The position numbers and the translations under genes were made by a program. From Propionibacteriaceae bacterium (GTDB lineage: Bacteria; Actinomycetota; Actinomycetes; Propionibacteriales; Propionibacteriaceae), in assembly GCA_009782785.1 (NCBI GenBank), contig WRIJ01000009.1:25111-89110 (forward strand): DNA of 64,000 nucleotides, written 5' to 3'. Below the pieces are notes generated by a model that worked only from the letters and a program-made list of their open reading frames with translations, did no database searches and was not told where the DNA came from. Position 1 is the first letter of the stretch. Each line of letters starts with the position of its first letter. Shown in pieces: positions 6,727-57,441 of this stretch.

Positions 6727-8031
6727 ATGCTGAGTGCGATCAGGAATGTTTTTAGGTCTGGTGATCTCAATAAGAAGATTCTATTCACGCTCTTCATCGT
6801 TGTGATCTTCCGTTTGGGTTCGACTCTTCCGGTCCCCAATGTGAACATGGTCAATCTCTCGGGATGTGTGAAACAAGCAGCAGAAGCCAGTGATGAAACT
6901 GCTGGACTCTTCTCGATGATCAACCTGTTCTCTGGTGGAGCGATGTTGCAGATGTCGGTTTTTGCCCTCGGCATCATGCCGTACATCACCGCAAGCATCA
7001 TCATGCAGCTCATGACTGTTGTGGTTCCCCGCCTGGAAACCCTCAAAAAGGAGGGGGCATCAGGTACGGCCAAGATCACCCAATATACTCGCTATCTCAC
7101 TGTTATTCTGGCGGTGTTGAACGCGACCACCTATGTTTCGATGGCCGTCAATAAGCAGATTTTTAGAAGCTGCCCCGACGATGTTGTTCACTCGAATGAA
7201 CTTTTCCCAATTGTTGTCATGATCCTCACGATGACCGCTGGTACAGGTATGGTCATGTGGCTTGGTGAGCTCATCACTGATCATGGTGTGGGCCGAGGCA
7301 TGTCGATCCTCATCTTCACCCAAATCGCGGCTCGTTTCCCGGATTCTTTGTGGCAGATTCAACAGCAGAAAGGCTGGTTCCTGTTCCTGCTGGTTTTGGC
7401 CATTGGTTTACTGGTGATGGTGGGCATCATCTTCATGGAGCAAGGTCAACGCCGCGTTCCTGTTCAATACGCGAAACGCATGGTCGGGCGCAAGATGTAC
7501 GGCGGTTCCAAGACCTATATCCCACTCAAAGTGAACCAGTCTGGTGTTATCCCGGTCATCTTTGCTTCATCGATTTTGTACCTACCGTCGATGTTTGCTC
7601 AAATGTTCCCCACATCGAAGGTGTCGATCTTCATCGGGCAATACTTCGTTAAAGGCTCCGAATGGCCCTATAACGTCCTGTTCTTCCTGCTAGTGGTGTC
7701 CTTCTGTTACTTCTATGTGTCGATCACGTTCAACCCTGTGGAGATCTCAGACAATATGAAGAAGTACGGCGGATTCATCCCCGGTATCCGAGCGGGAGCC
7801 CCGACAGCTCGATACTTGAAGTACGTCCTGAGTCGACTGACTTTCCCCGGTTCACTCTATTTGGGTATCGTGGCTCTGATACCGACTTTAGCCTTCGTAC
7901 TCGTGGGTGCATCACAGCAATTCCCCTTCGGTGGTACATCAATCCTGATTGTTGTCGGTGTTGGTCTTGATACGGTCAAGCAGATCCAGTCACAACTCGA
8001 GCAGCGCTCCTACGAGGGCTTCCTTAAATGA
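6727..8031 (+). CDS. secY: Preprotein translocase subunit SecY
   Basis: 434-aa polytopic ORF containing LFSGGAMLQMSVFALGIMPYITASIIMQL. Conserved position after rplO. Confidence 0.97.
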   Translation: MLSAIRNVFRSGDLNKKILFTLFIVVIFRLGSTLPVPNVNMVNLSGCVKQAAEASDETAGLFSMINLFSGGAMLQMSVFALGIMPYITASIIMQLMTVVVPRLETLKKEGASGTAKITQYTRYLTVILAVLNATTYVSMAVNKQIFRSCPDDVVHSNELFPIVVMILTMTAGTGMVMWLGELITDHGVGRGMSILIFTQIAARFPDSLWQIQQQKGWFLFLLVLAIGLLVMVGIIFMEQGQRRVPVQYAKRMVGRKMYGGSKTYIPLKVNQSGVIPVIFASSILYLPSMFAQMFPTSKVSIFIGQYFVKGSEWPYNVLFFLLVVSFCYFYVSITFNPVEISDNMKKYGGFIPGIRAGAPTARYLKYVLSRLTFPGSLYLGIVALIPTLAFVLVGASQQFPFGGTSILIVVGVGLDTVKQIQSQLEQRSYEGFLK

Positions 8032-8044
8032 GATTGTCTGTCGT

Positions 8045-8066
8045 ATAGTGCGCTGGCGCGCACTAT
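8045..8066 (+). terminator. Hairpin after secY (9-bp perfect stem ATAGTGCGC / GCGCACTAT, 4-nt loop)
   Basis: Perfect inverted repeat read directly, 14 nt after the secY stop. No clear U-tract. Confidence 0.5.
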
Positions 8067-8122
8067 CTTCCGGCCAAACGCATACTCACCAACTCCGTCG
8101 TTCTGCGTTCCCTTCCCAGATG

Positions 8123-8271
8123 GTCATTCCGCGGAGGGCACCAGCCCGACTTGGCAGGAATCCAGGTAAACGATCAGCCCTGAAGAATAGTCTGATGGCA
8201 ATGACTAACCACCGATGGTCACCACCAGGGTCAGTGTGATTTCTGGACCCTGCGACTTCGCGCAGGGTGAC
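8123..8271 (+). repeat. Family-A palindromic TIR mini-element, copy A1 (149 bp)
   Basis: Begins GTCATTCCGCGGAG and ends CGCAGGGTGAC (ends fit GTCAYYCYGCG in inverted orientation). Homologous by eye over its full length to 8480-8642 and, reverse-complemented, to 31053-31200. Confidence 0.85.
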
Positions 8272-8280
8272 GGTAGTAGT

Positions 8281-8441
8281 GTCCATTGACCGCAATTGTG
8301 TGATCGGGAGCACGGGTTGTCGTTGCGTTGTGACTCACCATGCAAACCCAGATCAGTGCGTGAAGTAGAGTGACCAGCGTACAAGCGGTCACTACGCGAC
8401 GTTTCTCGACACCCACCATCAGGCGGTAGCGGTCAATAGAC
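8281..8441 (-). repeat. Family-B TIR mini-element, copy B1 (161 bp)
   Basis: Flanked by GTCCATTGACCGC (8281-8293) and GCGGTCAATAGAC (8429-8441), an inverted pair matching at 12 of 13 positions. The reverse-complemented body aligns with 30538-30700. Confidence 0.8.
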
Positions 8442-8479
8442 GACCCGGAACGGTCATTCCGCAGAGCAGTACCAACCAC

Positions 8480-8642
8480 ATCATTCCGCGGAGGGCACCA
8501 GCCCGACTTGGCAGGAATCCAGGTAAACGATCAACCCTGAAGAAGAGTCTGATGGCAATGACTAACCACCGATGGTCACCACCATGGCCAGTATGATTTC
8601 TGGACCCTGCGAGCCTTCGCTTCGCTCAGGCCGCAGGGTGAC
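8480..8642 (+). repeat. Family-A mini-element, copy A2 (163 bp)
   Basis: Direct repeat of A1 about 357 bp downstream. Same arms and body, with a longer loop in the right-hand hairpin. A solo arm GTCATTCCGCAGA lies at 8453-8465. Confidence 0.85.
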
Positions 8643-8750
8643 GGGGGTGGCGTCGACAAGGAACCGTCCCTTTGTGACTCGTGCAGGGAGACGGGGGTGG
8701 TGCTCCGCAGGGTGATGGAGGTGGTGGCGCACAGGGTAATGGAGGTGACC
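8633..8750 (+). repeat. Degenerate tandem array of GCAGGGTGAYGGRGGTGG (4 units)
   Basis: Units read at 8633, 8683, 8707 and 8731. This is the reverse complement of the C-rich arrays at 30706-30790 and 49015-49068. Confidence 0.6.
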
Positions 8751-8841
8751 TCGACCTGCGCTTCAGAGTTTATGGAATCTTTGGTGTCTGAGAGATCCTT
8801 GACTATATTCGTGAGTCGTGAATAAGTCGAAGGGCCCGAAT

Positions 8842-10133: not shown

Positions 10134-11063
10134 CTAGCGCTTCTTCCTGCGGGGATTCAATCTCTTGACCCCACTCACGACTCGACCTATCCGGGAGCCT
10201 TTCTCTTCGGTGTTCCCCTGCTCATCACTGCTAAGGGTCGCCTCTGAAGCAGTCTGCTCGGGTGAATCAGTGAGAGAATTTTCGGCATTGTCTGCCACCC
10301 ATTGAACATCTTCAGCCTTTTTCAGTGCATCAGCGCGTTCATAGTCGTCGAGGGTGGGCATGGAATATGCCTTGGCGGTGGTGTTGTACATCTGGGCAAT
10401 GACTAGACGCATTCTTTCAGCAAATGCGGGTGCATCTTCACCACTATGTGCTGTGAGTGGATGGCCAATGACTACATGGATCGGTGGATGGTTAGTCGGT
10501 GGTAGTGATCGGTCGTGGGGCCACGCTGCGAAGGCACCCACGAGGGCCAGGGGGATACACGGTACGTCCCGGGTGATCGATAGTGAAGCAACACCAGGTT
10601 TGAAAGAACCCATAGCGCCCGTACGCGAGCGCGTACCTTCAGGGAAAATGAGCAGGGGGATTCCTTCTTCGAGTAACCGCCCAGTGAGCCCCTTATAGTG
10701 GCCACTTCCTCGGGTGCTCGCACTGCGGCGTTCCACAGGATAAGCATTAAAGAGCAAAGATGTGGTGAGCCCTTTGAGTTTCTTGTCGAAGAAATAGTCT
10801 GCGGCAGCACCGGTAGCGATATGTTTCGACAACCTCCTTGGCAGTGCTCCAAGAATCAGTGAAGCATCAAGATGGGAGGAATGATTGGAGATGACAATGA
10901 ACGGGGCGTCAACATTGTCGAGCAATTCTTTACCATGGACTTGAACCTTGCAGGTGGACCACACGAGTGACTTGAGGACAACATCTTGAGCGACGAAGCG
11001 TACGCTCGAACGTACTGGGGAACGGTAGGTGGCAGGATCATTAGCCCTTGAGTTCTTTGCCAC
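10134..11063 (-). CDS. Lysophospholipid (1-acyl-sn-glycerol-3-phosphate) acyltransferase family protein
   Basis: HX4D motif (NHSSHLD) and FPEGTRS motif. I chose the GTG at 11063, which has GAGG 5 nt upstream and overlaps the SDR stop. Alternative starts are the ATG at 11099 and the GTG at 11150. Confidence 0.78.
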   Translation of the reverse strand: MAKNSRANDPATYRSPVRSSVRFVAQDVVLKSLVWSTCKVQVHGKELLDNVDAPFIVISNHSSHLDASLILGALPRRLSKHIATGAAADYFFDKKLKGLTTSLLFNAYPVERRSASTRGSGHYKGLTGRLLEEGIPLLIFPEGTRSRTGAMGSFKPGVASLSITRDVPCIPLALVGAFAAWPHDRSLPPTNHPPIHVVIGHPLTAHSGEDAPAFAERMRLVIAQMYNTTAKAYSMPTLDDYERADALKKAEDVQWVADNAENSLTDSPEQTASEATLSSDEQGNTEEKGSRIGRVVSGVKRLNPRRKKR

Positions 11064-11830
11064 TATTGCCTCGATTTGGTCAATTTGCGAGATATCCATC
11101 GGATGGTACGCCGGGGAAGGATGTGCCCGAGTCCCACGGCGAAACGCCACCTTGCCGTGGGTACGGACAGTACTTTACCGGCACCCAGGTGCTTGAGAGC
11201 TTTGGCGACGAGTTTGTCCGAATCGATCCAGACAAAACCTGGAAGGTTGTGTGCCTTGACTCCACCACGGGAATGGAATTCTGTCTTCACCCACCCGGGT
11301 AGCAGCGCCATCACTTTCACACCCGTACCGCGCAATTCATTAGACAAACCTTCGGTATAAACCGTGCACCAAGCTTTGATGGCTGAATAGTTGCCGGTAG
11401 TGATCGTGGTCGACGAGCTGGACACGTTGAGGATTGCTCCATGCCCGCGACTGGTCATGGCACGCCCTGCAGCACCAGAGAGAACCAGGACCGCCCGGCA
11501 CATGACTTCAAATGCTCGGTCATGGACTGAAACATCCTCAACCAGGAGTGAATCGTGGACGGCAAAACCGGCGTTGTTCACCAGAAGATCGATCGGGCGT
11601 GCAGGGTCTTCGATTCGCTTCGCTAGACGGTCAACATCCCTCCGTTTGGCGAGGTCTGTGGGAATGACTTCCACGGCTATGGAGTGTTGGTCGCGGAGTT
11701 GCCCAGCAACATTCTCTAAGCCTTCGCGGTCCCGGGAAGCCAGAACGAGGTCGTACCCGCTGGCAGCGAGCGCAGTGGCGAAAGAGTGGCCAATACCAAC
11801 CGTACCGCCGGTGATGAGTGCAGTGGGCAT
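11063..11830 (-). CDS. Short-chain dehydrogenase/reductase (SDR) family oxidoreductase
   Basis: 255-aa ORF with TGGTVGIGHS (TGxxxGxG), NNAG and YSAIK (YxxxK). Its ATG overlaps the ackA stop. Confidence 0.85.
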   Translation of the reverse strand: MPTALITGGTVGIGHSFATALAASGYDLVLASRDREGLENVAGQLRDQHSIAVEVIPTDLAKRRDVDRLAKRIEDPARPIDLLVNNAGFAVHDSLLVEDVSVHDRAFEVMCRAVLVLSGAAGRAMTSRGHGAILNVSSSSTTITTGNYSAIKAWCTVYTEGLSNELRGTGVKVMALLPGWVKTEFHSRGGVKAHNLPGFVWIDSDKLVAKALKHLGAGKVLSVPTARWRFAVGLGHILPRRTIRWISRKLTKSRQ

Positions 11831-13047
11831 CAGTTCATCACCCGATAGGTTTCCCGAGCCATGGCGAGCTCTTCATTGGTGGGTACGACCAAGACAGCAA
11901 TGCTCGAATCGGGCGCAGAAATCTCTGTGGCGTCCTTGTTGCGTGGTGTGTTTTTGGCCGGGTCAAGTTTGACCCCGAAACCTGCCAGGCGATCGCAGAT
12001 GCGTGCGCGAGTCATATTGTCATTCTCACCCACACCAGCAGTGAAGACGATCATGTCAACACGACCCAGGACAGCCATATAAGCGCCGATATAGCTGATC
12101 AAGCGGTGAATATAGACGTCCATGGCTTGGGCAGCGTTGGCATCACCAGCATCAATTTTTGCCCACAGGTCACGGAAATCGGAGGCGCCATCGGCAAGCC
12201 CAGCCATTCCGGACTGTTTGTTGAGCAGGTTGTCGACCTGCTGGGCATCCATGCCAGCCACTCGTTGCAGGTAGGAGAAGATGCCGGGGTCAATATCTCC
12301 CGAGCGAGTCCCCATGACCAAACCAGCGAGGGGAGTGAGCCCCATTGATGTTTCGATAGCCACCCCACCTCGTACTGCTGAAATGGAGGCACCATTACCC
12401 ATGTGACAGATGATCTGGTTCACATCCTCGACGTTCTTTCCCAAGAACTCCGCTGAAGCTTTCGAGACATAGCTGTGCGATGTGCCATGGAAGCCGTACT
12501 TGCGGATGTGGTATTTCTCAGCGACCTCGCGATCAATGGCGTAGGTGTAGGCCTCGGGGGGCAGGGTAGAGAAGAAGGCAGTGTCAAAGATAGCAACGTG
12601 CGGTACATTGGGCAGCGCTTGCTGGGCTGCTTTGATTCCAGCTATCCCAGGTGGATTATGCAACGGTGCTAGACCCGAGAGTTCAGTGAGGCCGTCGATC
12701 ACGTCGTCGTTGATGAGTGTTGTCTCGCGGAAACGCTCCCCACCGTGGACTGCTCGATGCCCAACCGCGACTACGTCTTCTAGTGGGGGCCCCCAGGTGT
12801 GGAAGGCGCGGGTGACCAGCGCTAGTGCCGCTGTGTGGTCGGCGATGGTCTCGTCGATCGTTTCTTTATGCCCACCAGTAGTGTGGGTGATGTTGCCATC
12901 GGTGAGTCCGATTTTTTCCACCATACCTGAAGCGAGAACCTCTTCGTTATCAATATCAATCATCTGGTATTTCACCGATGATGAACCACAGTTCAACACG
13001 AGGATGGGAGTGGGCACAGGGTCCTCCTTCGTTGGATGGGGGACCAC
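11830..13047 (-). CDS. ackA: Acetate kinase
   Basis: 405-aa ORF containing ILVLNCGSSSVKYQ, HRAVHGG and GFHGTSH. Confidence 0.95.
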   Translation of the reverse strand: MVPHPTKEDPVPTPILVLNCGSSSVKYQMIDIDNEEVLASGMVEKIGLTDGNITHTTGGHKETIDETIADHTAALALVTRAFHTWGPPLEDVVAVGHRAVHGGERFRETTLINDDVIDGLTELSGLAPLHNPPGIAGIKAAQQALPNVPHVAIFDTAFFSTLPPEAYTYAIDREVAEKYHIRKYGFHGTSHSYVSKASAEFLGKNVEDVNQIICHMGNGASISAVRGGVAIETSMGLTPLAGLVMGTRSGDIDPGIFSYLQRVAGMDAQQVDNLLNKQSGMAGLADGASDFRDLWAKIDAGDANAAQAMDVYIHRLISYIGAYMAVLGRVDMIVFTAGVGENDNMTRARICDRLAGFGVKLDPAKNTPRNKDATEISAPDSSIAVLVVPTNEELAMARETYRVMN

Positions 13048-16009: not shown

Positions 16010-16059
16010 GTCACCCTGCGGAGCCCACTAGGGCGACTCGCAGTGCTCCGCGGAATGAC
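16010..16059 (-). repeat. Minimal family-A-related element (50 bp): both arms joined by a 24-nt core
   Basis: GTCACCCTGCGGA-gcccactagggcgactcgcagtgc-TCCGCGGAATGAC. The same core occurs at 35238-35273 and, reverse-complemented, at 46246-46281. A further solo arm (GCTTCGCTCCGCAGAATGAC) lies at 16101-16120. Confidence 0.75.
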
Positions 16060-16137
16060 GGGAGAGGCGCGGCGGTTTTTGCGAGTGCCAGCCGGTCAAG
16101 GCTTCGCTCCGCAGAATGACAGGGCTGGTGCCATCAG

Positions 16138-27674: not shown

Positions 27675-27903
27675 GGGAGCTGTGCGAGGTCACCCACCTG
27701 AAACCATGTTCATGGCGATCATTGTGCTGGGTGCCTCTGTGTGTAGGAGCCGTGCCATGGCGCTGGACAATTCCTGCTAATCTTGATGGTGTGCAACAGT
27801 GAGTACCGCTTGGAGTCATTCCACTAGGGGGGCTTTCTCAGCGTCGGCAGTGTGTAGTGCACTGGCGAATTTGTCGCGATTGAACAAGGGAAGGACCCAT
27901 TTC

Positions 27904-28281
27904 ATGACATCAAAAATCTCCACAGTGAGAAAAACTCTCGTAGCAGCAGCCCTTGCAGTATTTGTCGCACTCCCATTGTCGGCCTGTGGCAGCACATCCG
28001 ATGACCCTATCGTGGGCAAGTGGGAAGTCATAGAAGTAGATGGAAAATCTATCGACATGATAGCATGGTCCATGTCTATTGATTTCAAGGCAAATGGGAA
28101 ACTGATAGCAATCCATTATGGTGACAAGATCACAGGAACTTGGACTACCGAGGGTACGAAAGTGACTATCAAGGATTCCCGGGAAACCATGGTCTGCGAT
28201 TACACGGTTGCAACAGGAAAGCTCATGCTTAATGACTGTGATGGCGTGGTTGGATCGTCGTTGACACTCGTACCAGCGTAG
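27904..28281 (+). CDS. Lipoprotein, lipocalin-like (paralog 3)
   Basis: MTSKISTVRKTLVAAALAVFVALPLSACGS lipobox, with GGGAAGGA upstream of the ATG at 27904. The N-terminal extension of the track ORF from 27799 is unlikely. Confidence 0.75.
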   Translation: MTSKISTVRKTLVAAALAVFVALPLSACGSTSDDPIVGKWEVIEVDGKSIDMIAWSMSIDFKANGKLIAIHYGDKITGTWTTEGTKVTIKDSRETMVCDYTVATGKLMLNDCDGVVGSSLTLVPA

Positions 28282-28326
28282 TAACACCACTCAATTGTGG
28301 TGCTCTGAGCATCAAGAACTATCGAT

Positions 28327-28354
28327 GAACCGCGGGCCCCAGCGTCCGCGGTTC
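28327..28354 (+). terminator. Hairpin GAACCGCGG-N10-CCGCGGTTC after paralog 3
   Basis: 9-bp GC-rich stem read directly. Duplicated at 29013-29040. Confidence 0.5.
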
Positions 28355-28589
28355 TCAACTGGGTAGAACGAGCTGGTGATGGAAAGCTCAGCTCTTGTGG
28401 GATGCTACCGAGGTGGGTGTCTCTGTGTGTAGGTGCTGTGCCATGGCGCTGGACAATTCCTGCTAATCTTGATGGTGCGCAACAGTGAGTACCGCTTGGA
28501 GTCATTCCACTAGGGGGGCTTTCTCAGCGTCGGCAGTGTGCAGTGCACTGGCGAATTTGTCGCGATTGAACAAGGGAAGGACCCATTTC

Positions 28590-28967
28590 ATGACATCAAA
28601 AATCTCCACAGTGAGAAAAACTCTCGTAGCAGCAGCCCTTGCAGTATTTGTCGCACTCCCATTGTCGGCCTGTGGCAGCACATCCGATGACCCTATCGTG
28701 GGCAAGTGGGATGTGACTGAAGTAGAAGGAATATCTATCGCCGGGTCAGGTACATCCATGTCTTTCGAATTCAAGGCAAACGGGAAAATGACAGCCACGA
28801 CCGACGGAGACAAGGGCCAAGGAACCTGGACTGTCGCTGGGAACAAGGTGACTATTAAGGATCGCGAAGAAACCATGGTCTGCGATTACACGGTTGAAAC
28901 AGACAAGCTCATGCTCAATGACTGTGATGGTTTGGGTGGCCTGTCGTTGACACTCGTACCAGCGTAG
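28590..28967 (+). CDS. Lipoprotein, lipocalin-like (paralog 4)
   Basis: Same signal peptide and lipobox as paralog 3. The mature core is diverged. Confidence 0.75.
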   Translation: MTSKISTVRKTLVAAALAVFVALPLSACGSTSDDPIVGKWDVTEVEGISIAGSGTSMSFEFKANGKMTATTDGDKGQGTWTVAGNKVTIKDREETMVCDYTVETDKLMLNDCDGLGGLSLTLVPA

Positions 28968-29012
28968 TAACACCACTCAATGGTGGTGCTCTAAGCACAT
29001 TGAACTAACGAT

Positions 29013-29040
29013 GAACCGCGGGCCACAGTGCCCGCGGTTC
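29013..29040 (+). terminator. Hairpin GAACCGCGGG-N8-CCCGCGGTTC after paralog 4
   Basis: 10-bp stem, ending 22 nt before the gltX start. Confidence 0.5.
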
Positions 29041-29049
29041 TCATCTGGG

Positions 29050-29055
29050 TAGAAT
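29050..29055 (+). promoter_or_regulatory. Candidate -10 hexamer TAGAAT for leaderless gltX
   Basis: TAGAAT ends 6 nt before the GTG at 29062 (9 nt before the ATG at 29065). No SD is present. The duplicated decoy copy at 28364-28369 reads TAGAAC. Confidence 0.4.
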
Positions 29056-29061
29056 AAGCCG

Positions 29062-30546
29062 GTGATGGAAAGCTCAGTTCTTGTGCGCGTACGCGTTGCC
29101 CCCTCGCCGACAGGTGACCCCCATGTGGGGACCGCCTACATGTCGCTGTTCAATTGGGCGTACGCACAGAAAACCGGTGGACAATTCGTACTGCGCATCG
29201 AAGACACCGATCAAGCAAGATATGTGGAAGGCTCCGAGAAGCAGATCTTCGACCTGTTGGCGTGGCTCGGTTTGACCTGGGATGAGGGTCCCGATATTTC
29301 CGGCCCGTACGCCCCGTACCGCCAATCGGAACGCCTCGACACCTATCGCCCGTACGTGGATCAACTCATCGAGGCCGGACACGCGTACTACTGCTGGTGC
29401 TCTTCGCAGCGCTTAACCCAGATGAGGGATGAGCAGGCCAAAGCGAAACTGTCCACCACTGGGTACGACCGGCTCTGCTATGGCAAGACACGTGAAGAAC
29501 GTGCCCAGCTTCCCGGGTTCAGTGAAACCCCGGTCGTACGCATGCTCATTCCTGATGATATGGACCTGGGTTTCGTGGATATGATTCGTGGTCAGATCAG
29601 TGCTCCGCGCCCCGATGATCAGGTCATACTGAAAGCCGATGGATTCCCGACCTACCATATGGCCGTGGTGGTCGATGATCATCTGATGGGGATCACCCAT
29701 GTCGTACGTGGGGAAGAGTGGATCTCCTCCACGCCAAAACACATCCTGCTCTATCAGTGGCTCGGGTGGGAGGTGCCGGCGTGGTGCCATATGCCGCTGC
29801 TGCGCAATACCGACAAGTCGAAGATTTCGAAACGCAAGAATCCAGCTGCGCGGTTAGTGTGGTTCCAGGAGGAAGGTTATCTACCTGAGGCCCTGTTGAA
29901 CTTCCTGCAACTCATGGGATACCCACCCACCGACGACCAAGAAGTGTGTTCCTTCGAGGATTTTGTGGCCGATTTTGACTGGGCGAAAGTTAATACGGTC
30001 GGTCCAGTGTTTGATGTGAAGAAACTGGACTGGCTCAATGGGCACTATCTTCGCGCGCTGAGTGAAGACGAGTTGGCTCGACGGATCGTGGACTATATCG
30101 AGACCTATCAGGCAGATGGGCTTTCAAGGCTTCTCGGAAAACGGAGTGCTGATTGGAAGCAGGTTGTTCGCCAGGCTGTTCCTCTGATTGCTCCACGGCT
30201 TGTGACCCTGAAAGAGGCTTTAGAGAAGGTACGGTTCCTGTTGGTTGATTTCGTCGCAGTCGATGATGCTGCGCGGGCCAAAGTTGCTGAGGATGCGCCG
30301 ATGGTGTTGCCCCTGGCTGCCGAGGTTCTCGAATCCTTGGTGGACTTCCAAGCCTCTGCGATCCAGGAGGCTCTCGTGACGGGACTCGTTGACGAGCAAG
30401 GATTGTCCAAGAAAACGGTATTCGCCCCGATCAGGGTTGCGATCGCTGGGGCATTGGTGTCCCCACCCCTGTTTGAGTCCATGGAGATTCTCGGGCGCGA
30501 CGAGTCATTGAAACGTCTGCGTGAGTTTCTTCGGTGTGTCCATTGA
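29062..30546 (+). CDS. gltX: Glutamate--tRNA ligase
   Basis: 494-aa ORF with RVAPSPTGDPHVGTAY (HIGH-type) and KISKRK (KMSKS-type). The start could be the GTG at 29062 or the ATG at 29065. Confidence 0.95.
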   Translation: MMESSVLVRVRVAPSPTGDPHVGTAYMSLFNWAYAQKTGGQFVLRIEDTDQARYVEGSEKQIFDLLAWLGLTWDEGPDISGPYAPYRQSERLDTYRPYVDQLIEAGHAYYCWCSSQRLTQMRDEQAKAKLSTTGYDRLCYGKTREERAQLPGFSETPVVRMLIPDDMDLGFVDMIRGQISAPRPDDQVILKADGFPTYHMAVVVDDHLMGITHVVRGEEWISSTPKHILLYQWLGWEVPAWCHMPLLRNTDKSKISKRKNPAARLVWFQEEGYLPEALLNFLQLMGYPPTDDQEVCSFEDFVADFDWAKVNTVGPVFDVKKLDWLNGHYLRALSEDELARRIVDYIETYQADGLSRLLGKRSADWKQVVRQAVPLIAPRLVTLKEALEKVRFLLVDFVAVDDAARAKVAEDAPMVLPLAAEVLESLVDFQASAIQEALVTGLVDEQGLSKKTVFAPIRVAIAGALVSPPLFESMEILGRDESLKRLREFLRCVH

Positions 30547-30700
30547 CCGCAGTTGCTTGACGGTGAGTGTCTAGAAACATCGCGTAGTGACTGCTTATGC
30601 GCTGGTCACTGTTATTTCTCGCACTGATCTGGTGAGGTTTGCACGGTGAGTCACAACGCAACGATTTCATGGGCACACTGCTAGGCAGTCGCGGACCGAC
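30538..30700 (+). repeat. Family-B TIR mini-element, copy B2 (about 163 bp)
   Basis: Starts with GTCCATTGACCGC, identical to 8281-8293, and overlaps the last two sense codons and the stop of gltX. The body aligns with the reverse complement of 8281-8441. The right end is degenerate. Confidence 0.78.
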
Positions 30701-30705
30701 TGTAT

Positions 30706-30790
30706 CCCCACCCTTGTCACCCCGCAGAAGAAACACCCCACCCCCGTCACCCTGCGGAGCGAAGATCGCCCCACCCCCGTCACCCTGCGG
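30706..30790 (+). repeat. Tandem array (3 units, about 25-34 bp) of CCCCACCCCCGTCACCCTGCGGA
   Basis: Units read at 30706, 30731 and 30765. The last unit merges into the arm of the next family-A copy. Confidence 0.65.
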
Positions 30791-30949
30791 ACGGGTGACG
30801 AGCTAAGCGAGGAACACCGTCTCGCAGGGTCCAGATATCACAGTCATCATGAGTAAGAGTCTGCCTAACCCGTCCACCATCAACAGACTCCACAACCATG
30901 GTTAATCGCCTGTCTAGATTCTGCGAGTCGCTTCGCTCCGCAGAATGAC
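30779..30949 (-). repeat. Family-A mini-element, copy A3 (171 bp, long-loop hairpin variant)
   Basis: GTCACCCTGCGGACGGGTGACGAGCTAAGCGAGGAACACCGTCTCGCAGGGTCC ... GGATTCTGCGAGTCGCTTCGCTCCGCAGAATGAC. The long hairpin differs by one base from the one at 49069. An extra partial arm lies at 30962-30979. Confidence 0.8.
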
Positions 30950-31052
30950 AGGGTTGAGGGTGTCGCTCCGCAGAATGACGTGGAAGGTGTCACCCTGCGG
31001 AATCACGCTGCACCTCCGTCACCCTATGAATGAGCGAAGACCACCAACCCCG

Positions 31053-31200
31053 GTCACCCTGCGCGAAGTCGCAGGGTCCAGATATCACACTTGCCATGGT
31101 GGTGACCGTCGGTGGTGGGTGATGCTCCCCAGACTCTTCTTCGGGGATCTCGCTGATCTGGATTCCTGCCAAGTCGTGCTGGCGCACTCCGCGGAATGAC
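31053..31200 (-). repeat. Family-A mini-element, copy A4 (148 bp)
   Basis: Its reverse complement aligns over the full length with A1 and A2 (8123-8271, 8480-8642). Confidence 0.85.
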
Positions 31201-32988: not shown

Positions 32989-33080
32989 GTCATTCCGCGG
33001 AGTGCGCCAGCACGACTTGGCAGGAATCCAGACTAGTGATCAACCACAATGACCGAGTCTGTCAATGATCACCGGTGGGT
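32989..33080 (+). repeat. Family-A mini-element, truncated copy (left arm plus body, no right hairpin)
   Basis: GTCATTCCGCGGAGTGCGCCAGCACGACTTGGCAGGAATCCAG... matches the reverse complement of 31150-31200. It starts 10 nt after the glnS stop and ends about 17 nt before the purC start. Confidence 0.75.
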
Positions 33081-35008: not shown

Positions 35009-35281
35009 GTCATTCCGCGCCAGCGCGCCAGCGCGACTCGCGGAATCCAGGCTCCACAATCACCACGGTTGTGGAGTCTGTTCATGGTGGTTACATTCGG
35101 GAGACTCACCAATCCGCTTAATGTGATTCCTGGATTCTGTTTCTCACTCCGTTCGTTCAACCACTTCCTTGACCTCGACATGAATGCAAGCATCCCTGCC
35201 CTCGGTCTTCGTCGTGGTGCGAGTCGCGAAGCCTGTGCTGCGGAGCCCGCTAGGGCGACTCGCAGTGCTCCGCAGAATGAC
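35009..35281. repeat. Repeat island: about 273-bp element bounded by two GTCATTC(C/T)GCG arms in inverted orientation
   Basis: Left arm GTCATTCCGCG-ccagcgcgccagcgcgact-CGCGGAATCC. Internal hairpin CTCCACAA-N9-TTGTGGAG. Right part carries the core CTGCGGAGCCCGCTAGGGCGACTCGCAGTGCTCCGCAGAATGAC. An extra GCAGAATGAC lies at 35288-35297. Confidence 0.75.
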
Positions 35282-35311
35282 GGAGAAGCAGAATGACGGG
35301 GTTGGGGTGGC

Positions 35312-38828: not shown

Positions 38829-41057
<2,229 letters not shown>

Positions 41058-41078
41058 ATAATAAGTCTCCGACACCAC

Positions 41079-41114
41079 CATGGCGGTGGCCCCTGAGAGG
41101 GGGTCACCGCCATG
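41079..41114. terminator. Long hairpin between convergent katG and the antiporter gene (likely bidirectional terminator)
   Basis: CATGGCGGTG-GCCCCT-GAG-AGGGG-GT-CACCGCCATG. A 10-bp perfect outer stem plus a 5-bp inner stem. Confidence 0.6.
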
Positions 41115-41140
41115 ATGCTGTTGAGAGAGATGTTGGTGCG

Positions 41141-42874
41141 TTATTCGCCTTTGCTCAGACGTATCTGGATGGCGAGTTCTTCAGCATCGAGTTCACTCAG
41201 AGCGTGGCGCAGCACGCTCGAGGAGTACGTGCCGGTCGTACGCAGATCGAGCAGAGCTTTGCGCTGGGCTCTGATCTTCATCAAAGGAATCATTTCTTCA
41301 GGCACAGTTTTCCCTGCAGGGGCGCTCCAATTCTTGCCGGCCTGGCTGAGTTGCCCGGCCAGACGATCCCATTCTCCAGCTGGTTCCGAGTCTTGGCCAT
41401 CCAAACCAACACCTTTCACGAACCAACCCAAGGTTCCTCCCTGGATGATGAGGGATCCTGCAGCGACAAAGAACGCAATGAGGATCATCATCGAACGGTG
41501 CGGAGTGTCGAGGGGAAGGGTTTGAGCTGCAGCCAAGGTAACTACTCCTCGCATGCCACCCCAGATCAGTAAGCCACCCTCTTTGAAACCGAGCGGTTGG
41601 CGCATGAGATACTCTGCATCAGCAAGATAGCGCTGAATGAGGGTGCTGACATATTCCACGCGATGAGATTTGCGCTCCTGTTTAGAATCAAAGTTTTTGA
41701 GCCGAGACTTCAACTGTGCTCGACGCTCCATCATGATCTCTTCGCGTTTCTTCCACTCCACATCTTGAGGTGCATCCTTGATCGCCTTGCTTCGTTTGAT
41801 CTTCTTCTTTGATGAATGTGAGAGCCGGCTGATCAGGGCAGCAATGAAACCGCCACGCAAAATGATGGCAAGCAGGAGGGCGAGGGCAGCTATTCCTACT
41901 GCCGTCCACACAGTGTCTTGGGTGCTCGTGACATCATTGACCAGCGCTCGCAGTTCGAGACCCATGATGAAGAACACCGTACCTTCAAGCAAGAACTCGA
42001 GGGTATGCCAGTTTGCTGAATCAGACAGACGCTGACGGGCATCAAGATGTTTGGGCCCAGAGTGTGCGGCCACCAACCCGGCGGCAACGACCGCAACCAA
42101 ACCGGAGGCATGGCAGACCTCTTCAGCAAAGATGTAGGCCACGAAAGGAATGAGGAGGGACGATGCAGTCGCTGGCGCTGCCAACGGAATGAGTTTGCGA
42201 ATTCGAAGGCCCAACCAGCCAATGATCCCACCAATGAGGGCTGCTCCAAGGGCGGCCCAGAAGAACTGGAGAAGGATAGACCACCAGGGGATGGGGGTGA
42301 TCGTACCATCAGGGGAAGCCAGGGCAGCAGCAGAAGCTGAGGCAGCGGCAACAGCAGAACGCAGCAGCACCAATGACGTGGCGTCATTGAGCAAGGATTC
42401 ACCTTGCAAGATATTCCTGACCCGTGAGGGAACTCCTAGACGTCGAATGATGGTGGTGGCAGCTGCATCGGTGGGGCTCAAAATGGCACCCAAAGCAATA
42501 CAGTAACCCATGTTCACATCAGGCAGGATCCAGTGAATGATGAACCCCAAAATGACTGCACTGCAGATCACTAACAGCACTGCTAATCCACCAACTGCAG
42601 CAAAGTCGCGTCGGAAATCAACAGTAGGAATAGCTATAGCGGCGGCATATAACAATGGCGGCAGGATGATCACCAAGATCCAGTCAGGGGGAATCGAGGG
42701 GATGTTCACGAAGGGAAGAAAACTGATCCCCACACCAACGAGCATGAGGATCAGTGGAGGGGCGATTCCCAACTTGTCTGACACTGTTGACAAGCCGATA
42801 ACGATGGCTGCCACTAGGACAATGAGAAGAACCTGAGGGATCAAACCCTCCATATCAGGAAATAGATTCACCAT
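41141..42874 (-). CDS. Na+/H+ antiporter (CPA1/NhaP-type) with cytoplasmic C-terminal domain
   Basis: 577-aa ORF with about 11-12 TM helices, AILSPTDAAA and ESLLNDATSLV motifs, and a charged C-terminal tail. Confidence 0.9.
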   Translation of the reverse strand: MVNLFPDMEGLIPQVLLIVLVAAIVIGLSTVSDKLGIAPPLILMLVGVGISFLPFVNIPSIPPDWILVIILPPLLYAAAIAIPTVDFRRDFAAVGGLAVLLVICSAVILGFIIHWILPDVNMGYCIALGAILSPTDAAATTIIRRLGVPSRVRNILQGESLLNDATSLVLLRSAVAAASASAAALASPDGTITPIPWWSILLQFFWAALGAALIGGIIGWLGLRIRKLIPLAAPATASSLLIPFVAYIFAEEVCHASGLVAVVAAGLVAAHSGPKHLDARQRLSDSANWHTLEFLLEGTVFFIMGLELRALVNDVTSTQDTVWTAVGIAALALLLAIILRGGFIAALISRLSHSSKKKIKRSKAIKDAPQDVEWKKREEIMMERRAQLKSRLKNFDSKQERKSHRVEYVSTLIQRYLADAEYLMRQPLGFKEGGLLIWGGMRGVVTLAAAQTLPLDTPHRSMMILIAFFVAAGSLIIQGGTLGWFVKGVGLDGQDSEPAGEWDRLAGQLSQAGKNWSAPAGKTVPEEMIPLMKIRAQRKALLDLRTTGTYSSSVLRHALSELDAEELAIQIRLSKGE

Positions 42875-45215: not shown

Positions 45216-45808
45216 GTGATGAACAGGCATGTGGGGACAGCGTCGACCCTCATGTGGGTGACCAATCGAGCAATGGTGGGGGGCTCACGCCTGGCGATGC
45301 CGATATTGTCACCAGGCAGTTGGGGCGTACTCCCAGAGGAGCAGTGAAAGTCGCATGGCGATGCCCACAAGGGCACCCTGGCGTGGTGATGACGAGGCCG
45401 CGTTTGAGCGATGGCACACCCTTTCCCACACTGTATTACCTCACCTGCCCGGCAATCGTGAAAGCATGCTCGACCTTGGAAGCTGACGGTTTGATGGCTT
45501 CGTTGACTGCGCGTTTAACTGACGATGTTCAATTCGCTGCGGCGTACGGACAAGCCCATGACTCCTATCTGGTGGATCGTGAAACTTTGGCTCAGGAATT
45601 GGGGATCGAGGTGCCAGAGATTTCAGGGATTTCGGCTGGCGGAATGCCATCGCGGGTGAAATGCTTGCACACTGTGGTGGCACACAGTTTGGCCAAGGGA
45701 CCTGGTGTGAATCCTTGTGGGGATGAGGCCTTGGAGGCCATCGGAGTCTTTTGTCGATCGGGGTGTGCCCAGGTTTGTGGGCCTGCTAGTGAGCGAGAGG
45801 TGTCATGA
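45212..45808 (+). CDS. DUF501 domain-containing protein
   Basis: 198-aa ORF containing RCPQGHPGVVMTRPRL..GTPFPTLYYLTCP. Conserved eno/FtsB-like/DUF501/ppx synteny. Confidence 0.8.
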   Translation: MSDEQACGDSVDPHVGDQSSNGGGLTPGDADIVTRQLGRTPRGAVKVAWRCPQGHPGVVMTRPRLSDGTPFPTLYYLTCPAIVKACSTLEADGLMASLTARLTDDVQFAAAYGQAHDSYLVDRETLAQELGIEVPEISGISAGGMPSRVKCLHTVVAHSLAKGPGVNPCGDEALEAIGVFCRSGCAQVCGPASEREVS

Positions 45809-46899
45809 GAGTAGGGGTTATTGATTGTGGTACGAACACCACCAGGATCCTCATCTGTGATGGGGATGTTTCCGGGGTTCCTCAAGAGGTTGTGAGGGAG
45901 TTGAGATTTACCCGGTTGGGGGAGGGGGTTGATCGAAGTGGGAGTTTCACTAGTGACGGGCTGAAGCGTACTTTTGCGGCTGTTGAAGAATATGCTCAGA
46001 TGTTGGAGGCGTACCAGGTGGACACGGTACGTTTTGTCGCAACCTCAGCTGCCCGCGATGTACACAACCGTGAAGATTTTATTAGTGGGGTGAGAACCCG
46101 CCTGGGTATCGAACCGGAGATTATCTCAGGCGAGGAAGAGGCATACTTGAGTTTTCTTGGAGCACTCACTTCTTCCGCCATGGCATCCGATCCACCTCTG
46201 GCTCCGGTCACCTTGTGTGAAGCGGAGCTCCCTCCGGTCACCCTGTGGAGCACTGCGAGTCGCCCTAGCGGGCTCCGCAGCGCAGGCTCCGCGACTCGCA
46301 GGGTCCACGATCAACCACCAAACAACGATCAATCGGTCCTCGTCGTTGACATCGGTGGTGGGTCAACCGAACTGATTCGCGGGTTCCTCTCGGGGCGCCT
46401 CGAATCGAGAGTCAGTCTTGATATGGGGTCAGTTCGTCTTCGTGAACGGTACCTTCACGGTGATCCACTCACTGTTCCCCAGATCGATCAAGCACGAAGC
46501 TTCGTTAGTGAGCTACTGGATGGTTGTGGTGTTGCCATCGGCGATGTGGATGTCTTTATTGGAGTTGCAGGTACGTTGACTTCACTGTCGGGTATGAACC
46601 AATCTTTGGATTCTTATGATCGTACGAAAGTACACAATTCCACCCTGGAGGTGGATGACATCTTAACCCTGCAGGAGCACTTGTTGACCTTGAGTGTGGA
46701 TGAGGTCATCAACCAGTATCCGAGTCTCCCAGCACCACGCGCCGAGGTGATTGGTGCTGGAGCACTCATTGCTAGCGAGATTGCTCGCAGAGTCGGGCGT
46801 ACGATGATTGTTCGCGAAACAGATATTTTGGATGGTGCTGCCATGCAACTCTTCAGAGAGCCGCGATCGTCCACATGGCACAAGCCCATCGAGGTGTGA
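45805..46899 (+). CDS. ppx: Ppx/GppA family phosphatase (exopolyphosphatase), carrying an in-frame repeat-derived insertion
   Basis: 364-aa ORF containing VIDCGTNTTRIL, GEEEAYLSFLGA and LVVDIGGGSTEL. The segment at 46207-46306 matches the intergenic repeats. Confidence 0.87.
   Translation: MRVGVIDCGTNTTRILICDGDVSGVPQEVVRELRFTRLGEGVDRSGSFTSDGLKRTFAAVEEYAQMLEAYQVDTVRFVATSAARDVHNREDFISGVRTRLGIEPEIISGEEEAYLSFLGALTSSAMASDPPLAPVTLCEAELPPVTLWSTASRPSGLRSAGSATRRVHDQPPNNDQSVLVVDIGGGSTELIRGFLSGRLESRVSLDMGSVRLRERYLHGDPLTVPQIDQARSFVSELLDGCGVAIGDVDVFIGVAGTLTSLSGMNQSLDSYDRTKVHNSTLEVDDILTLQEHLLTLSVDEVINQYPSLPAPRAEVIGAGALIASEIARRVGRTMIVRETDILDGAAMQLFREPRSSTWHKPIEV
46207..46306 (-). repeat. Family-A-related repeat segment inside the ppx coding sequence
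   Basis: Carries two GTCACC(T/C)TGTG arms and the core GCACTGCGAGTCGCCCTAGCGGGCTCCGCAG (reverse complement of 35240-35270 and 16018-16048). Ends CGCGACTCGCAGGGTCC. Confidence 0.8.
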
Positions 46900-46915: not shown

Positions 46916-46988
46916 GCCCCCATAGCCCAACGGCAGAGGCAGTCGACTTAAAATCGATCCAGTGTCGGTTCGAATCCGACTGGGGGCA
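46916..46988 (+). tRNA. tRNA with anticodon UAA (nominally Leu) but a class-I fold (5-nt variable loop)
   Basis: Manual cloverleaf: acceptor GCCCCCA/TGGGGGC, D arm GCCC-AACGGCAG-AGGC, anticodon arm GTCGA-CTTAAAA-TCGAT, variable loop CCAGT, T arm GTCGG-TTCGAAT-CCGAC, discriminator A. CCA is not encoded. Confidence 0.72.
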
Positions 46989-47029
46989 CGGGGGTTGGTG
47001 GTGTCACAGACACTTACCTGTCAGCTAAA

Positions 47030-48252: not shown

Positions 48253-48345
48253 AGTTTCACTGTATCACAGCAACACACTTGTCCACAGGAGGTCGATTGT
48301 GAGTGTGTGGCACATGAGCGCCCTCCCAACTAACCTATGTAACGG

Positions 48346-49008: not shown

Positions 49009-49068
49009 CATTTACCCCGCCCACCAGTCACCAACTTTCCCCGTCACGACGTACGTGCCTCCATTTTT

Positions 49069-49237
49069 GTCACCCTGCGGACGGGTGACGAGCGAAGCGA
49101 GGAACACCGTCTCGCAGGGTCCAGATATCACACTGACGACGGTGGTGACCGCCGGTGGTTAATAGTCGCCAGCAGACTCACTGTCGTGGTTGATCGCTTG
49201 TCTGGATTCCGCGAGTCGCTTCGCTCCGCGGAATGAC
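49069..49237 (-). repeat. Family-A mini-element, copy A5 (169 bp, long-loop variant)
   Basis: The body and left-hand arm are identical to 49502-49650 except for one base seen by eye (T/C in GGTTGA(T/C)CGC). Preceded by degenerate C-rich units at 49015-49068. Confidence 0.85.
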
Positions 49238-49248
49238 CGTTCTGGGTC

Positions 49249-49490
49249 GTTCATTGACCGCGACCCCCTGGTGACGAGTGTCTTTAAACGTCGCGTGGTG
49301 ACTGTATCTCTGTTTTCGTCACCCACAGACTCACCAGTGGTGGCAAACCGTTTGTCTGGATTCCGCGACTTTGCGCGGAATGACGGATATGGGTCACACT
49401 GTGCACATCATGGCCGTATCGTCTCCATGGAGGTGAGTGACAACGCAGCGATTCCTCATGGTCACTGTGGAGCAGTTGCGGTCGGTTGGC
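49249..49490 (+). repeat. Family-B mini-element, copy B3, interrupted by a partial family-A insertion (about 49318-49384)
   Basis: Ends are GTTCATTGACCGC and GCGGTCGGTTGGC. Internal blocks GTGTCTTTAAACGTCGCGTGGTGAC and GGTGAGTGACAACGCAGCGA match B1/B2. The nested hairpin is GGATTCCGCG-ACTTTG-CGCGGAATGAC. Confidence 0.7.
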
Positions 49491-49501: not shown

Positions 49502-49650
49502 GTCACCCTGCGGAACGAAGTGACTCGCAGGGTCCAGATATCACACTGACGACGGTGGTGACCGCCGGTGGTTAATAGTCGCCAGCAGACTCACTGTCGT
49601 GGTTGACCGCTTGTCTGGATTCCGCGAGTCGCTTCGCTCCGCGGAATGAC
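49502..49650 (-). repeat. Family-A mini-element, copy A6 (149 bp)
   Basis: Near-identical to A5 apart from a shorter hairpin loop. Confidence 0.85.
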
Positions 49651-49710
49651 AGGGTATGTCGCTTCGCTCCGCGGAATGACAGGGTATGTCGCTTCGCTCC
49701 GCGGAATGAC
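49628..49710 (+). repeat. 30-bp tandem repeat, 2.8 copies (GTCGCTTCGCTCCGCGGAATGACAGGGTAT)
   Basis: Perfect abutting copies at 49628, 49658 and 49688 (the last is truncated). They reiterate the arm of copy A6. Confidence 0.9.
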
Positions 49711-49861
49711 CGGTGAGGGGCAGTGCCGCCCACCATGGATGAGTGCGGTATGCGGAATGACTGGGTGGTGACTGCCAGTGCTAACGGGAGCGAGGTTTAA
49801 CGAACGTGGGAGTATGTCATCGTTTAATTGATCGTTGACACGGGGTTATGTCAGCGATTTC

Positions 49862-57052: not shown

Positions 57053-57360
57053 GTGCAGAAGAACTGGAAATCTACGAAGCCGAACTTGAGCTTGCCATCT
57101 ATCGGGAATACAAGGATGTTGTGGGAATCTTCAAGTGGGCGGTGGAGACAGAACGACGTTTCTATCTCTGCAATAAGGTCGATTTGAAAGTACGTACTGA
57201 GGGTGGTGACGTGTACTACGAGGTCTCAATGGAGGATGCGTGGGTGTGGGATATGTACCGCCCAGCGCGTTTCGTGAAGACAGCCAAGGCGCTCACATTC
57301 CGTGATGTTGCTATTGAGGAAATCGCCCACAGCGACCTGCAGGTCCCTGAGCAGGGATAG
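57049..57360 (+). CDS. DUF2469 domain-containing protein
   Basis: 103 aa. Its ATG overlaps the rnhB stop (ATGA). Contains MSAEELEIYEAELELAIYREYKDVV. Conserved rplS-lepB-rnhB-DUF2469 synteny. Confidence 0.85.
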   Translation: MSAEELEIYEAELELAIYREYKDVVGIFKWAVETERRFYLCNKVDLKVRTEGGDVYYEVSMEDAWVWDMYRPARFVKTAKALTFRDVAIEEIAHSDLQVPEQG

Positions 57361-57441
57361 TTTCCTGGTTGGTCAATGGATTCTGCGACTGCGCGCAGAA
57401 TGACGGGGGTGGTGGATCCTGCAGGTCCCTGAGCAGGGATA
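57336..57441 (+). repeat. Perfect 24-bp direct repeat (CCTGCAGGTCCCTGAGCAGGGATA at 57336-57359 and 57418-57441) flanking a solo repeat arm
   Basis: The 58-bp spacer contains GGATTCTGCG-ACTGCG-CGCAGAATGAC followed by GGGGGTGGTGG, which is the family-A arm plus the G-rich motif. Confidence 0.85.

Follow-up and report, generated by a model that had tools for sequence, protein, structure and literature searches.

The origin and multiplication of the dRS3, NIME and NTS-type repeats have been an open matter since the first meningococcal genomes, and hairpin-spacer-hairpin arrays (NIMEs) have reportedly been known in Neisseria since 2000, from the work of Parkhill. Here, we compare with these systems the short hairpin repeats in a 64-kb stretch of DNA (called the window; 53.7% G+C) from an uncultured termite-gut Propionibacteriaceae bacterium, which an earlier note had described as two families of elements, A and B, bounded by terminal inverted repeats.

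The NIME arrays consist of dRS3 hairpins with repeat units of 50-150 bp between them (Bentley et al. 2007, PMC1797815), and dRS3 is in addition the integration site of the Nf/MDA phages (PMC1797815). According to Chenal et al. 2025 (Nat Commun, PMC11893778), the Neisseria NTS, CGTCATTCCCGCGMAVGCGGGAATCYRG, is a longer and oriented motif present in nearly half of the dRS3 copies, with the form CGTC-ATTCCCGCG-loop-CGCGGGAAT-CYRG. NTS and the "Ssn-related motifs" (SRM) occur in hundreds of copies in many phyla, and the motifs flank the gene of SsnA, a single-domain GIY-YIG protein of 94 aa. For SsnA to bind the hairpin, the DNA must be single-stranded, and the cut is made a few nucleotides upstream; cutting depends on the three bases ahead of the stem and binding on the C that directly follows it. 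Transformation by NTS-flanked DNA is reduced by the Ssn system in N. meningitidis. In its available part, the 2025 work gives the partner enzyme of the repeats but not the route by which they spread (PMC11893778).

The window contains eight islands built from two types of hairpin, called H1 and H2. The islands are intergenic, lying among housekeeping genes with most copies just downstream of genes, and the sole exception is at 46207-46308, where the repeats are in frame inside ppx. We consider it likely that the islands are arrays of Ssn-related hairpin repeats, of the same class as the Neisseria NTS/dRS3 repeats and the NIME arrays. The kind is known, namely the Ssn/NTS hairpins, and what is new here is an 8-bp-stem class, missed by the published motif, in termite-gut Propionibacteriaceae. 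The suggestion that the element could be undescribed is therefore given up; the NTS/dRS3/Ssn-related class covers the hairpins (PMC11893778) and NIME arrays were known earlier.

The basic repeating unit was found to be the hairpin and not an element of ca 150 nt. H1 has the form GTCA-TTCCGCG/TTCTGCG ... CGCGGAA/CGCAGAA-TCCAG, and H2 the form GTCA-CCCTGCG ... CGCAGGG-TCCAG. When folded as single-stranded DNA, the 8-bp stem starts at the A of GTCA, and the conserved GTC on the 5' side and TCCAG on the 3' side are unpaired. The minimal form of H1 and H2 has a 6-nt loop and a free energy of -7 to -9 kcal/mol (z-scores -3.6 to -5.2), which bears out the earlier proposal that the ends of family A fold into hairpins of their own. 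Loop length varies between 6 and about 50 nt, and GCGAAGC is frequent in the loops. The full hairpin, written as GTCAYYCYGCG-N(4-34)-CGCRGRRTCCAG, has 10 matches in the window against 0.00 expected; GTCATTCCGCGGAG with up to two mismatches has 15 (0.58 expected) and GTCACCCTGCG with up to one mismatch has 12 (1.7 expected). The 13-mer of the B ends alone is weakly enriched (7 matches, 2.0 expected), and four of the seven are true B ends. The census of the window gives 13 full hairpins, 4 with an imperfect 3' arm and ca 15 solo 5' arms, many of the latter standing in tandem with a period of 24-33 nt and each with its own C-rich upstream flank. A CRISPR-like reading of these tandem units was dropped, as they are half-hairpins with identical "spacers".

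The two arms of the hairpins covary, as expected for a selected stem, and the pairs seen are CCCTGCG/CGCAGGG, TTCTGCG/CGCAGAA, TTCCGCG/CGCGGAA, TTCCGTG/CACGGAA, TCCTGCG/CGCAGGA and TCCTGCA/TGCAGGA. The conservation extends beyond the stem. Ahead of 259 different hairpins from the lineage there is a C-rich stretch of 9 nt, with 57-76% C at seven of its positions, and the downstream flank is conserved as A-NN-CCACAGT, which indicates that the unit that is recognised or copied is longer than the hairpin.

The gene that accompanies the hairpins was found in related DNA, of which ca 0.8 Mb was sampled (a first set of 84 loci, denoted L below, and 30 loci added later). A scan for the H2 hairpin with one genome per species gave at least 82 stretches. 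In two proteobacterial loci, L067 and L084, a small GIY-YIG gene has the H2 hairpin as its 3' end, and more hairpins are present on both sides of it. The L067 protein has 4462 relatives in the database, the best 120 of which are 70-96% identical to it and come from across phyla; in about half of these best 120, the C-terminal tail is a translated hairpin, for example WMDSGPCDFAQGD or ...AQND. A profile was built from 120 homologues of the L067 protein, and searches of the window and the first 84 loci by tblastn, by this profile and by a GIY-YIG regular expression gave no ssn gene except for those in the two proteobacterial loci.

The JGI metagenomes were also scanned for the lineage-specific junction CGCAGGGTCCAGAWATCAC. 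Of the 24 stretches obtained, the Nt197 termite-gut metagenome contributed 18 and the metagenome of the window 2. One contig, L111 (12.35 kb, 53.3% GC), has at 11498-11785 an open reading frame (ORF) of 95 aa that matches the home-built profile with E=6.7e-42 and the Pfam GIY-YIG family (PF01541) with E=9e-16. The spacing of its Tyr8, Tyr19 and Glu66 equals that of the catalytic Y6, Y17 and E64 of SsnA. Ahead of this gene there is an H1 hairpin, of which 41 nt are 100% identical to window 49610-49650, and after it an inverted H2 hairpin. The same H1-ssn-H2 frame, with gene-less A copies alongside, is present in L119 and L121, which come from contig WRIC01000008.1 of the metagenome-assembled genome (MAG) of a sister species, termite-gut Propionibacteriaceae Nt197P3bin23 (WRIC01). 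The proteins encoded there share 88% and 73% identity with that of L111 and are annotated as GIY-YIG nucleases; other actinobacterial homologues are found in Leucobacter and Ruaniaceae. The complete unit in the lineage thus consists of H1, ca 65 nt, the 95-aa single-domain GIY-YIG gene (ssn), ca 80 nt and an inverted H2.

With this unit at hand, the hairpins can be compared with the definition of SRM. The window hairpins fit the definition of an oriented inverted repeat of 20-50 nt, with GTC upstream and a C directly after the stem, and repeats flank a single-domain GIY-YIG gene of ca 94 aa in L111, L119, L121, L067 and L084, although not inside the window. The NIME-type layout, with hairpins separated by repeat units of 50-150 bp, is seen at 8123-8753, 30538-31200 and 49069-49761. 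The published SRM search sequence, HGTCWYN(0-2)YYVSBRHN(0-5)WNVSBRGN(0-2)RNCYNB, has no match at the ssn-flanking hairpins of L067, L084, L111, L119 and L121 and three, chance-like, in the 391 kb sampled of the sister MAG; it fails on the stem length and on details of the loop. The dRS3 consensus ATTCCC-N8-GGGAAT has no match in the window. Since the hairpins share the structure and the genomic association of SRM but escape the published motif, we place them in the known Ssn/NTS/NIME kind as an 8-bp-stem class, and not in a new kind of element.

The identity of the gene between the hairpins bears also on another explanation, in which the repeats would be of the REP/REPIN type and moved by a RAYT (Y1, HUH) transposase encoded elsewhere in the genome. 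The inverted hairpin doublets, the mosaic clusters and the intergenic position would fit such repeats. The conserved 5' bases, however, are GTCA and not a GTAG-type REP tetranucleotide, the gene actually present between the hairpins encodes a GIY-YIG nuclease, and a phmmer search with E. coli RayT in the six-frame translations of the window and of the 84 + 30 loci (ca 0.8 Mb, not whole genomes) gave a best E of 0.14. A RAYT origin is accordingly given very little chance. The earlier note had correctly stated that the window has no transposase or RAYT gene, but a Y1/RAYT or other transposase was expected as the driver, and its place is taken by the 95-aa GIY-YIG gene flanked by H1 and H2 in the related contigs.

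Some further observations concern the surroundings of ssn. A giant surface protein of L111, which has a basic tail and a membrane-spanning stretch at its C-terminus, has paralogues in other B-containing contigs, and the L111 ssn adjoins a 3411-aa surface protein. The two ssn copies of the sister MAG (L119 and L121) are separated by ca 10 kb, with giant Big_1/Invasin_D3 surface-protein genes between them. This position recalls, by analogy, the clustering of NTS around such genes in Neisseria. The subtype of the H1 arm follows the ssn paralogue in the flanks of L111, L119 and L121, with TTCCGTG/CACGGAA at P0243 and TTCCGCG/CGCGGAA at P0242 and P0241; in the window, only the TTCCGCG and TTCTGCG types occur. 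This match hints, from two or three data points, at co-evolving specificities.

We now consider how families A and B relate to the ssn unit. Family A consists of H1, a centre of ca 78 nt and an inverted H2. As a whole, it folds into a long imperfect hairpin (dG -41 kcal/mol, z-score -3.3), that is, an inverted doublet of palindromes, in agreement with the earlier description of non-autonomous, hairpin-bounded repeats with a layout like that of REP/BIME doublets. The first two copies (A1, 8123-8271, and A2, 8480-8642) are 95% identical over 140 nt. Self-comparison gives the other copies at 31053-31200 (84%), 49069-49237 and 49502-49650 (73-74%) and 30779-30949, and the segments 49111-49237 and 49524-49650 are 99% identical to each other.

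Sequence next to the hairpins links family A to ssn. The left subterminal region, ca 45-55 nt, gives a match of L111 11392-11466 to window 30949-30875 (86.7%), and the right one, ca 20-55 nt, gives matches of L111 11825-11880 to window 30877-30822 (82%) and of L111 11853-11909 to window 31096-31040 (89.5%). The A copy at 30779-30949 thus corresponds to the L111 ssn unit in the subterminal region on either side, and the internal 358 nt with ssn are absent from A. As both hairpins and the subterminal sequence are common to the two, family A is most simply read, from these alignments, as a gene-less deletion derivative of the H1-ssn-H2 unit.

Module B has one full copy, 8281-8441, with imperfect terminal inverted repeats of 24 nt. 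It is present three times in the window, always beside A, with a fragment just past the window end; the copy at 30538-30664 is 83% identical over 127 nt, and the one at 49249-49490 carries a nested H1 hairpin. No copy is present in the sampled DNA of the sister species. Window 8230-8468, which comprises H2, B and the solo H1 arm, matches L111 at 11060-11303 (E=5e-34) and at 11854-12098 (E=3e-30), and these two segments bracket the L111 ssn unit. On these alignments, the post-secY island is colinear with the L111 ssn locus. Since its three copies are always beside A, none is present in the sampled DNA of the sister MAG, and the same order is seen next to ssn in L111, B is a lineage-specific spacer module of the arrays and not an independent second transposon family. 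The earlier proposal of two families bounded by terminal inverted repeats thus overstates B. The sequence self-comparison did recover the A, B, solo-arm and A copies at 8123-8642, the four degenerate GCAGGGTGAYGGRGGTGG units (at 8631, 8681, 8705 and 8729) and the repeats at the further sites listed earlier (16010, 30538-31200, 32989, 35009-35297, 46207, 49015-49710 and 57377).

The relation between A and a longer coding unit could also suggest classical miniature inverted-repeat transposable elements (MITEs), such as the Correia elements, that is, deletion derivatives of an insertion sequence with a DDE transposase, moved by cut-and-paste through their terminal inverted repeats. The size of 150-170 bp, the 11-nt inverted ends, the variable presence between species and the one nested copy speak for this. 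However, each end is a self-contained hairpin that is found also alone, halved and in tandem, and the full-length relative codes for the 95-aa GIY-YIG protein only. No transposase or multi-copy gene was found in the ca 0.8 Mb sampled: Pfam annotation of the window gave no transposase, nuclease, recombinase, prophage or insertion sequence, and an all-against-all protein comparison of the sampled Propionibacteriaceae DNA gave no multi-copy gene family, its matches being limited to ABC ATPase paralogues and pseudo-ORFs encoded by hairpins. The C-rich and G-rich flanks, which are conserved, have an inverted and not a direct orientation, and no target-site duplication was noticed when the flanks were read by eye, no systematic search having been run. 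We regard MITEs as a very unlikely explanation.

The hairpins are not confined to the window; confinement to it had been named as the finding that would speak for mere local duplications. Among the matches listed, 51 of the at least 82 H2 stretches come from the sister MAG, and the 391 kb sampled of it contain 252 hairpins. The window genes are 73-85% identical to it at the nucleotide level, which makes the two sister species. The presence/absence comparison suggested earlier shows that orthologous intergenic sites differ between them in both the presence and the content of repeats; for instance, window 54893-55023 and 41053-41149 are empty, and the corresponding sites of the sister species (L058 5298-5746 and L051 6332-6672) have compact units of H1, 30 nt and H2. 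At L058 5300-5750, another repeat family, with direct and inverted GTGACAAACGCCCCGTCCCC units, stands around a compact H2-H1 unit. Other phyla have the repeats as well. Among the matches listed, the identical 29-nt H2 hairpin is found in Thiopseudomonas, Nitrosospira, Burkholderiaceae, Desulfovibrionales and Patescibacteria MAGs and in a 37%-GC MAG labelled Rickettsia typhi, in these lineages paired every time with H1-like partners. The loci of the latter MAG (L003, L016-L018, L036, L038, L061 and L079; 35-41% GC) have dense arrays of the same hairpins, ca one per kb. This composition is at odds with what we take to be that of R. typhi, and the label may thus be wrong.

These comparisons bear on a further alternative, that the islands are immobile local arrays that arose by slippage, tandem duplication and homologous recombination, with the hairpins being kept as transcription terminators or mRNA stabilisers. 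The tandem half-arms with their 24-33-nt periods, the recurrent A-B-A order, the near-identity of adjacent copies (99% for 49111-49237 against 49524-49650, 95% for A1 against A2), the 24-nt direct repeat around hairpin 57376 and the position of most copies just downstream of genes can all be understood in this way. What it leaves unexplained are the identical 29-nt hairpins in different phyla, the oriented, conserved and unpaired flanks, the linkage to ssn, and the copies at unrelated loci and inside ppx. A terminator role finds no backing at the post-secY island either, where a consensus promoter/terminator scan gave counts no higher than in shuffles and no T-tract terminators; Rfam at gathering thresholds gave two tRNAs only in the whole window, and a permissive scan of 8000-8800 gave a single chance-level match. 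Local arrays as the whole explanation are hence judged unlikely, but slippage and recombination probably contribute as a mode of array growth, which is compatible with the Ssn explanation, and a terminator or RNA role may be a side effect of the hairpins.

Another option considered was that the hairpins are integration sites of phages or other elements, as dRS3 is for the Nf/MDA phages (PMC1797815). This we hold to be very improbable. The Pfam annotation of the window and the protein comparison of the sampled loci, given above, offer no recombinase, prophage, insertion sequence or multi-copy gene family for it, the H2 pattern has no match in 2.9 million viral contigs, and such a use would anyway be secondary to the origin of the repeats.

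If the repeats are Ssn-related, a mechanism can be sketched. When the DNA is single-stranded, for instance in replication or following its uptake or transfer, each hairpin would extrude (after Chenal et al. 2025). Ssn encoded elsewhere in the genome could then bind the hairpin in trans and nick a few nucleotides upstream of GTCA. With the hairpins of family A taken as facing inward on opposite strands, the predicted nicks would be just outside each end of the unit. From these nicks, repair synthesis, template switching or recombination might copy the units and multiply the half-arms, which would amount to spread and array growth. One expected effect would be that entering single-stranded DNA, and recombination in the vicinity of the flanked genes, are restricted or modulated. 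One can go further and speculate that A and the H1-ssn-H2 unit are a true pair of non-autonomous and autonomous mobile elements, moved without a transposase by a 95-aa GIY-YIG single-strand nuclease and spreading from nicks by a copy-out or repair-mediated route. We consider this possible, with more doubt than confidence. If true, the pair would explain how the NTS/dRS3/NIME repeats reach hundreds of copies and why near-identical hairpins and nucleases are found across phyla.

A number of points weigh against the assignment to Ssn or against this mechanism. There is no ssn gene in the 64-kb window or in the 7.7 kb past its end; metagenome contigs identical to the window (from one ENA assembly and from JGI metagenome 3300002505) extend it by 3.2 kb upstream and 7.7 kb downstream, and neither extension has a nuclease gene. 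L111 itself comes only probably from the organism of the window or one very closely related to it, judging by its 53% GC, its B-like modules (none in the sampled DNA of the sister MAG) and its paralogous surface proteins. The published SRM search sequence has no match in the window (0.54 expected). That the Ssn of the lineage would act in trans on the window hairpins is an analogy, as the activity is known from the system of Chenal et al. 2025 and not from these proteins and hairpins. In the A copies at 8123, 8480, 31158 and 32989, the 3' arm of H1 is imperfect and its loop is long, and perhaps these copies are no longer Ssn substrates. As for mobility, the relation between A and the ssn unit could have the opposite direction to the one proposed, with the gene captured between existing hairpins instead of lost. 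Finally, in alignments of empty against filled sites between the two species, the intergenic DNA is too diverged, and no exact junction or target-site signature was resolved.

The features of the islands are collected in Table 1.

Table 1. Hairpin repeats and associated modules in the window (positions are those of the 64-kb stretch)
Feature	Position	Strand	Description
Family A, copy 1	8123..8271	-	H1 8123-8165 (NTS-like strand +, long loop, imperfect 3' arm), 77-nt centre, H2 8243-8271 (NTS-like strand -); no ssn
Module B, full copy	8281..8441	+	Ends GTCCATTGACCGC / GCGGTCAATAGAC; spacer between H2 hairpin and next H1 arm
Solo H1 5' arm	8453..8466	+	GTCATTCCGCAGAG
Family A, copy 2	8480..8642	-	H1 8480-8522 (first base A, not G); H2 8600-8642, 20-nt loop with GCGAAGC
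Four tandem solo H2 5' arms with C-rich upstream flank (the G-rich GCAGGGTGAYGGRGGTGG units)	8631..8753	-	Starts at 8631, 8681, 8705, 8729
Hybrid hairpin and solo arm	16010..16120	.	16010-16059: H2 5' arm, 'H3' loop module and inverted H1 5' arm; solo H1 arm 16107-16120
Module B, 127-nt copy	30538..30664	-	Terminal GTCCATTGACCGC gives TGA stop of gltX
Solo arms and family A copy	30716..30999	+	Solo H2 30716, 30746; A 30779-30949 (H2 30779-30834, H1 30914-30949); solo H1 30966-30979; solo H2 30989-30999
Family A copy	31053..31200	+	H2 31053-31081, H1 31158-31200
H1 hairpin (32989-33031) and start of A centre	32989..33047	+	Starts 10 nt past glnS stop codon
H1 hairpin, H3 module and solo arms	35009..35297	.	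H1 35009-35050, then sequence resembling the ssn unit in its left subterminal part; H3 35238-35281; solo H1 35271-35281, 35287-35297
Degenerate solo arm (46207-46225) and H2 hairpin with H3-type loop (46237-46308)	46207..46308	+	In frame in ppx
Family A copy	49069..49237	+	H2 49069-49124, H1 49202-49237
Module B, interrupted	49249..49490	-	Nested partial centre and short H1 hairpin 49356-49384
Family A copy and arms	49502..49761	+	A 49502-49650; 30-nt tandem solo H1 arms 49667-49680, 49697-49710; degenerate arm 49751-49761
Solitary short H1-type hairpin (57376-57404)	57336..57441	-	Bracketed by perfect 24-nt direct repeat 57336-57359 / 57418-57441

Two host genes are altered by the repeats. 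In ppx (45805-46899), the in-frame hairpin insertion adds ca 45 residues ahead of the DIGGGS motif, and residues 126-177 of the protein stand in place of 8 residues of the closest solved homologue; the length is 364 aa, against mostly 304-309 aa in homologues. The orthologues P0147 and P0141, from the sister MAG and a related contig, have a larger hairpin-encoded insertion in the same loop, with the peptides LDPATSRRVT and SARSRRIQNS, and lack the DIGGGSTEL motif in the alignment, which means that the enzyme may be inactive there. In gltX (29062-30546), the stop codon and the last three codons lie inside the terminal GTCCATTGACCGC of the B module (30538-30550), and the orthologue of the sister species ends differently.

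The direct repeat around the solitary hairpin of the last table row brackets a segment of 58 nt, and its first copy contains the stop codon of the upstream DUF2469 gene. It may be the footprint of a single-hairpin insertion or duplication. Elsewhere in the window, 27728-28399 and 28414-29085 form a 672-bp tandem duplication (88% identity) with two tandem 160-aa Lipocalin_4-like ORFs (27799-28281 and 28485-28967), at which ENA metagenome contigs matching the window end or begin. A PIN-domain ORF with a small upstream ORF, like a toxin-antitoxin pair, is located at 47619-48032 between tRNA-Leu (46916-46989) and tRNA-Ala (48344-48418). Just past the right end of the window, L089 9426-12486 has UPF0102, ComM-like Mg-chelatase and DprA genes, which in transformable bacteria are handlers of incoming single-stranded DNA.

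As to the significance of these results, one lineage has, side by side, hairpin-ssn-hairpin units that are intact, gene-less copies in which the subterminal sequence is retained, arrays colinear with an ssn locus, and differences between sister species at orthologous sites. With all of these together, the view that Ssn elements behave as insertion sequences do can be put directly to the test. The added value here is, first, the pair of intact and gene-less units and the arrays colinear with ssn, which bear on how the repeats spread, and, second, the in-frame copy in ppx. Since the published motif misses widespread ssn-adjacent hairpins with an 8-bp stem, current censuses probably undercount the system, including in Actinomycetota. 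There is also a consequence for annotation, as the repeats give rise to spurious ORFs, lengthen or end real genes (gltX, ppx) and interrupt metagenome assemblies.

Compared with other known systems, the repeats have in common with the MITE/Correia elements the size, the inverted ends and the relation of a non-autonomous form to a longer coding unit, but their ends are independent hairpins and no transposase of any known class is encoded by the longer unit. With REP/BIME/REPIN they share the intergenic palindromes, inverted doublets and mosaic clusters, a single- or low-copy gene flanked by its own repeats and the recognition of a single-stranded hairpin; the partner, however, is a GIY-YIG nuclease and not a Y1 HUH transposase, and the conserved flanks differ. 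As with the Rickettsia palindromic elements, a palindromic repeat is tolerated in frame in a coding gene (here ppx), a likeness in position, although here only one of ca 30 copies is in coding sequence. The Neisseria NIMEs are closer, with hairpin inverted repeats that flank units of 50-150 bp in gene-adjacent arrays varying between strains or species; the spacers found here (the A centre and B) are unrelated to the Neisseria RS units, and one of them is traceable to the sequence on either side of ssn.

Finally, in comparison with the NTS/SRM-SsnA system as given in the available part of Chenal et al. 2025, the stem here is 8 bp instead of 9, many loops measure 13-50 nt, and a unit has one arm type at one end and another at the other (H1 and H2). 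The repeats here come from an actinobacterial host, and their upstream flank is C-rich and not variable. The gene-less copies share subterminal sequence with the intact unit, a relation that we did not find stated in that part of the paper. Common to both are the oriented hairpin with 5' GTC and a C after the stem, the numerous and mostly intergenic copies, the hairpin-ssn-hairpin unit with a single-domain GIY-YIG gene of ca 95 aa, and identical hairpins across phyla.

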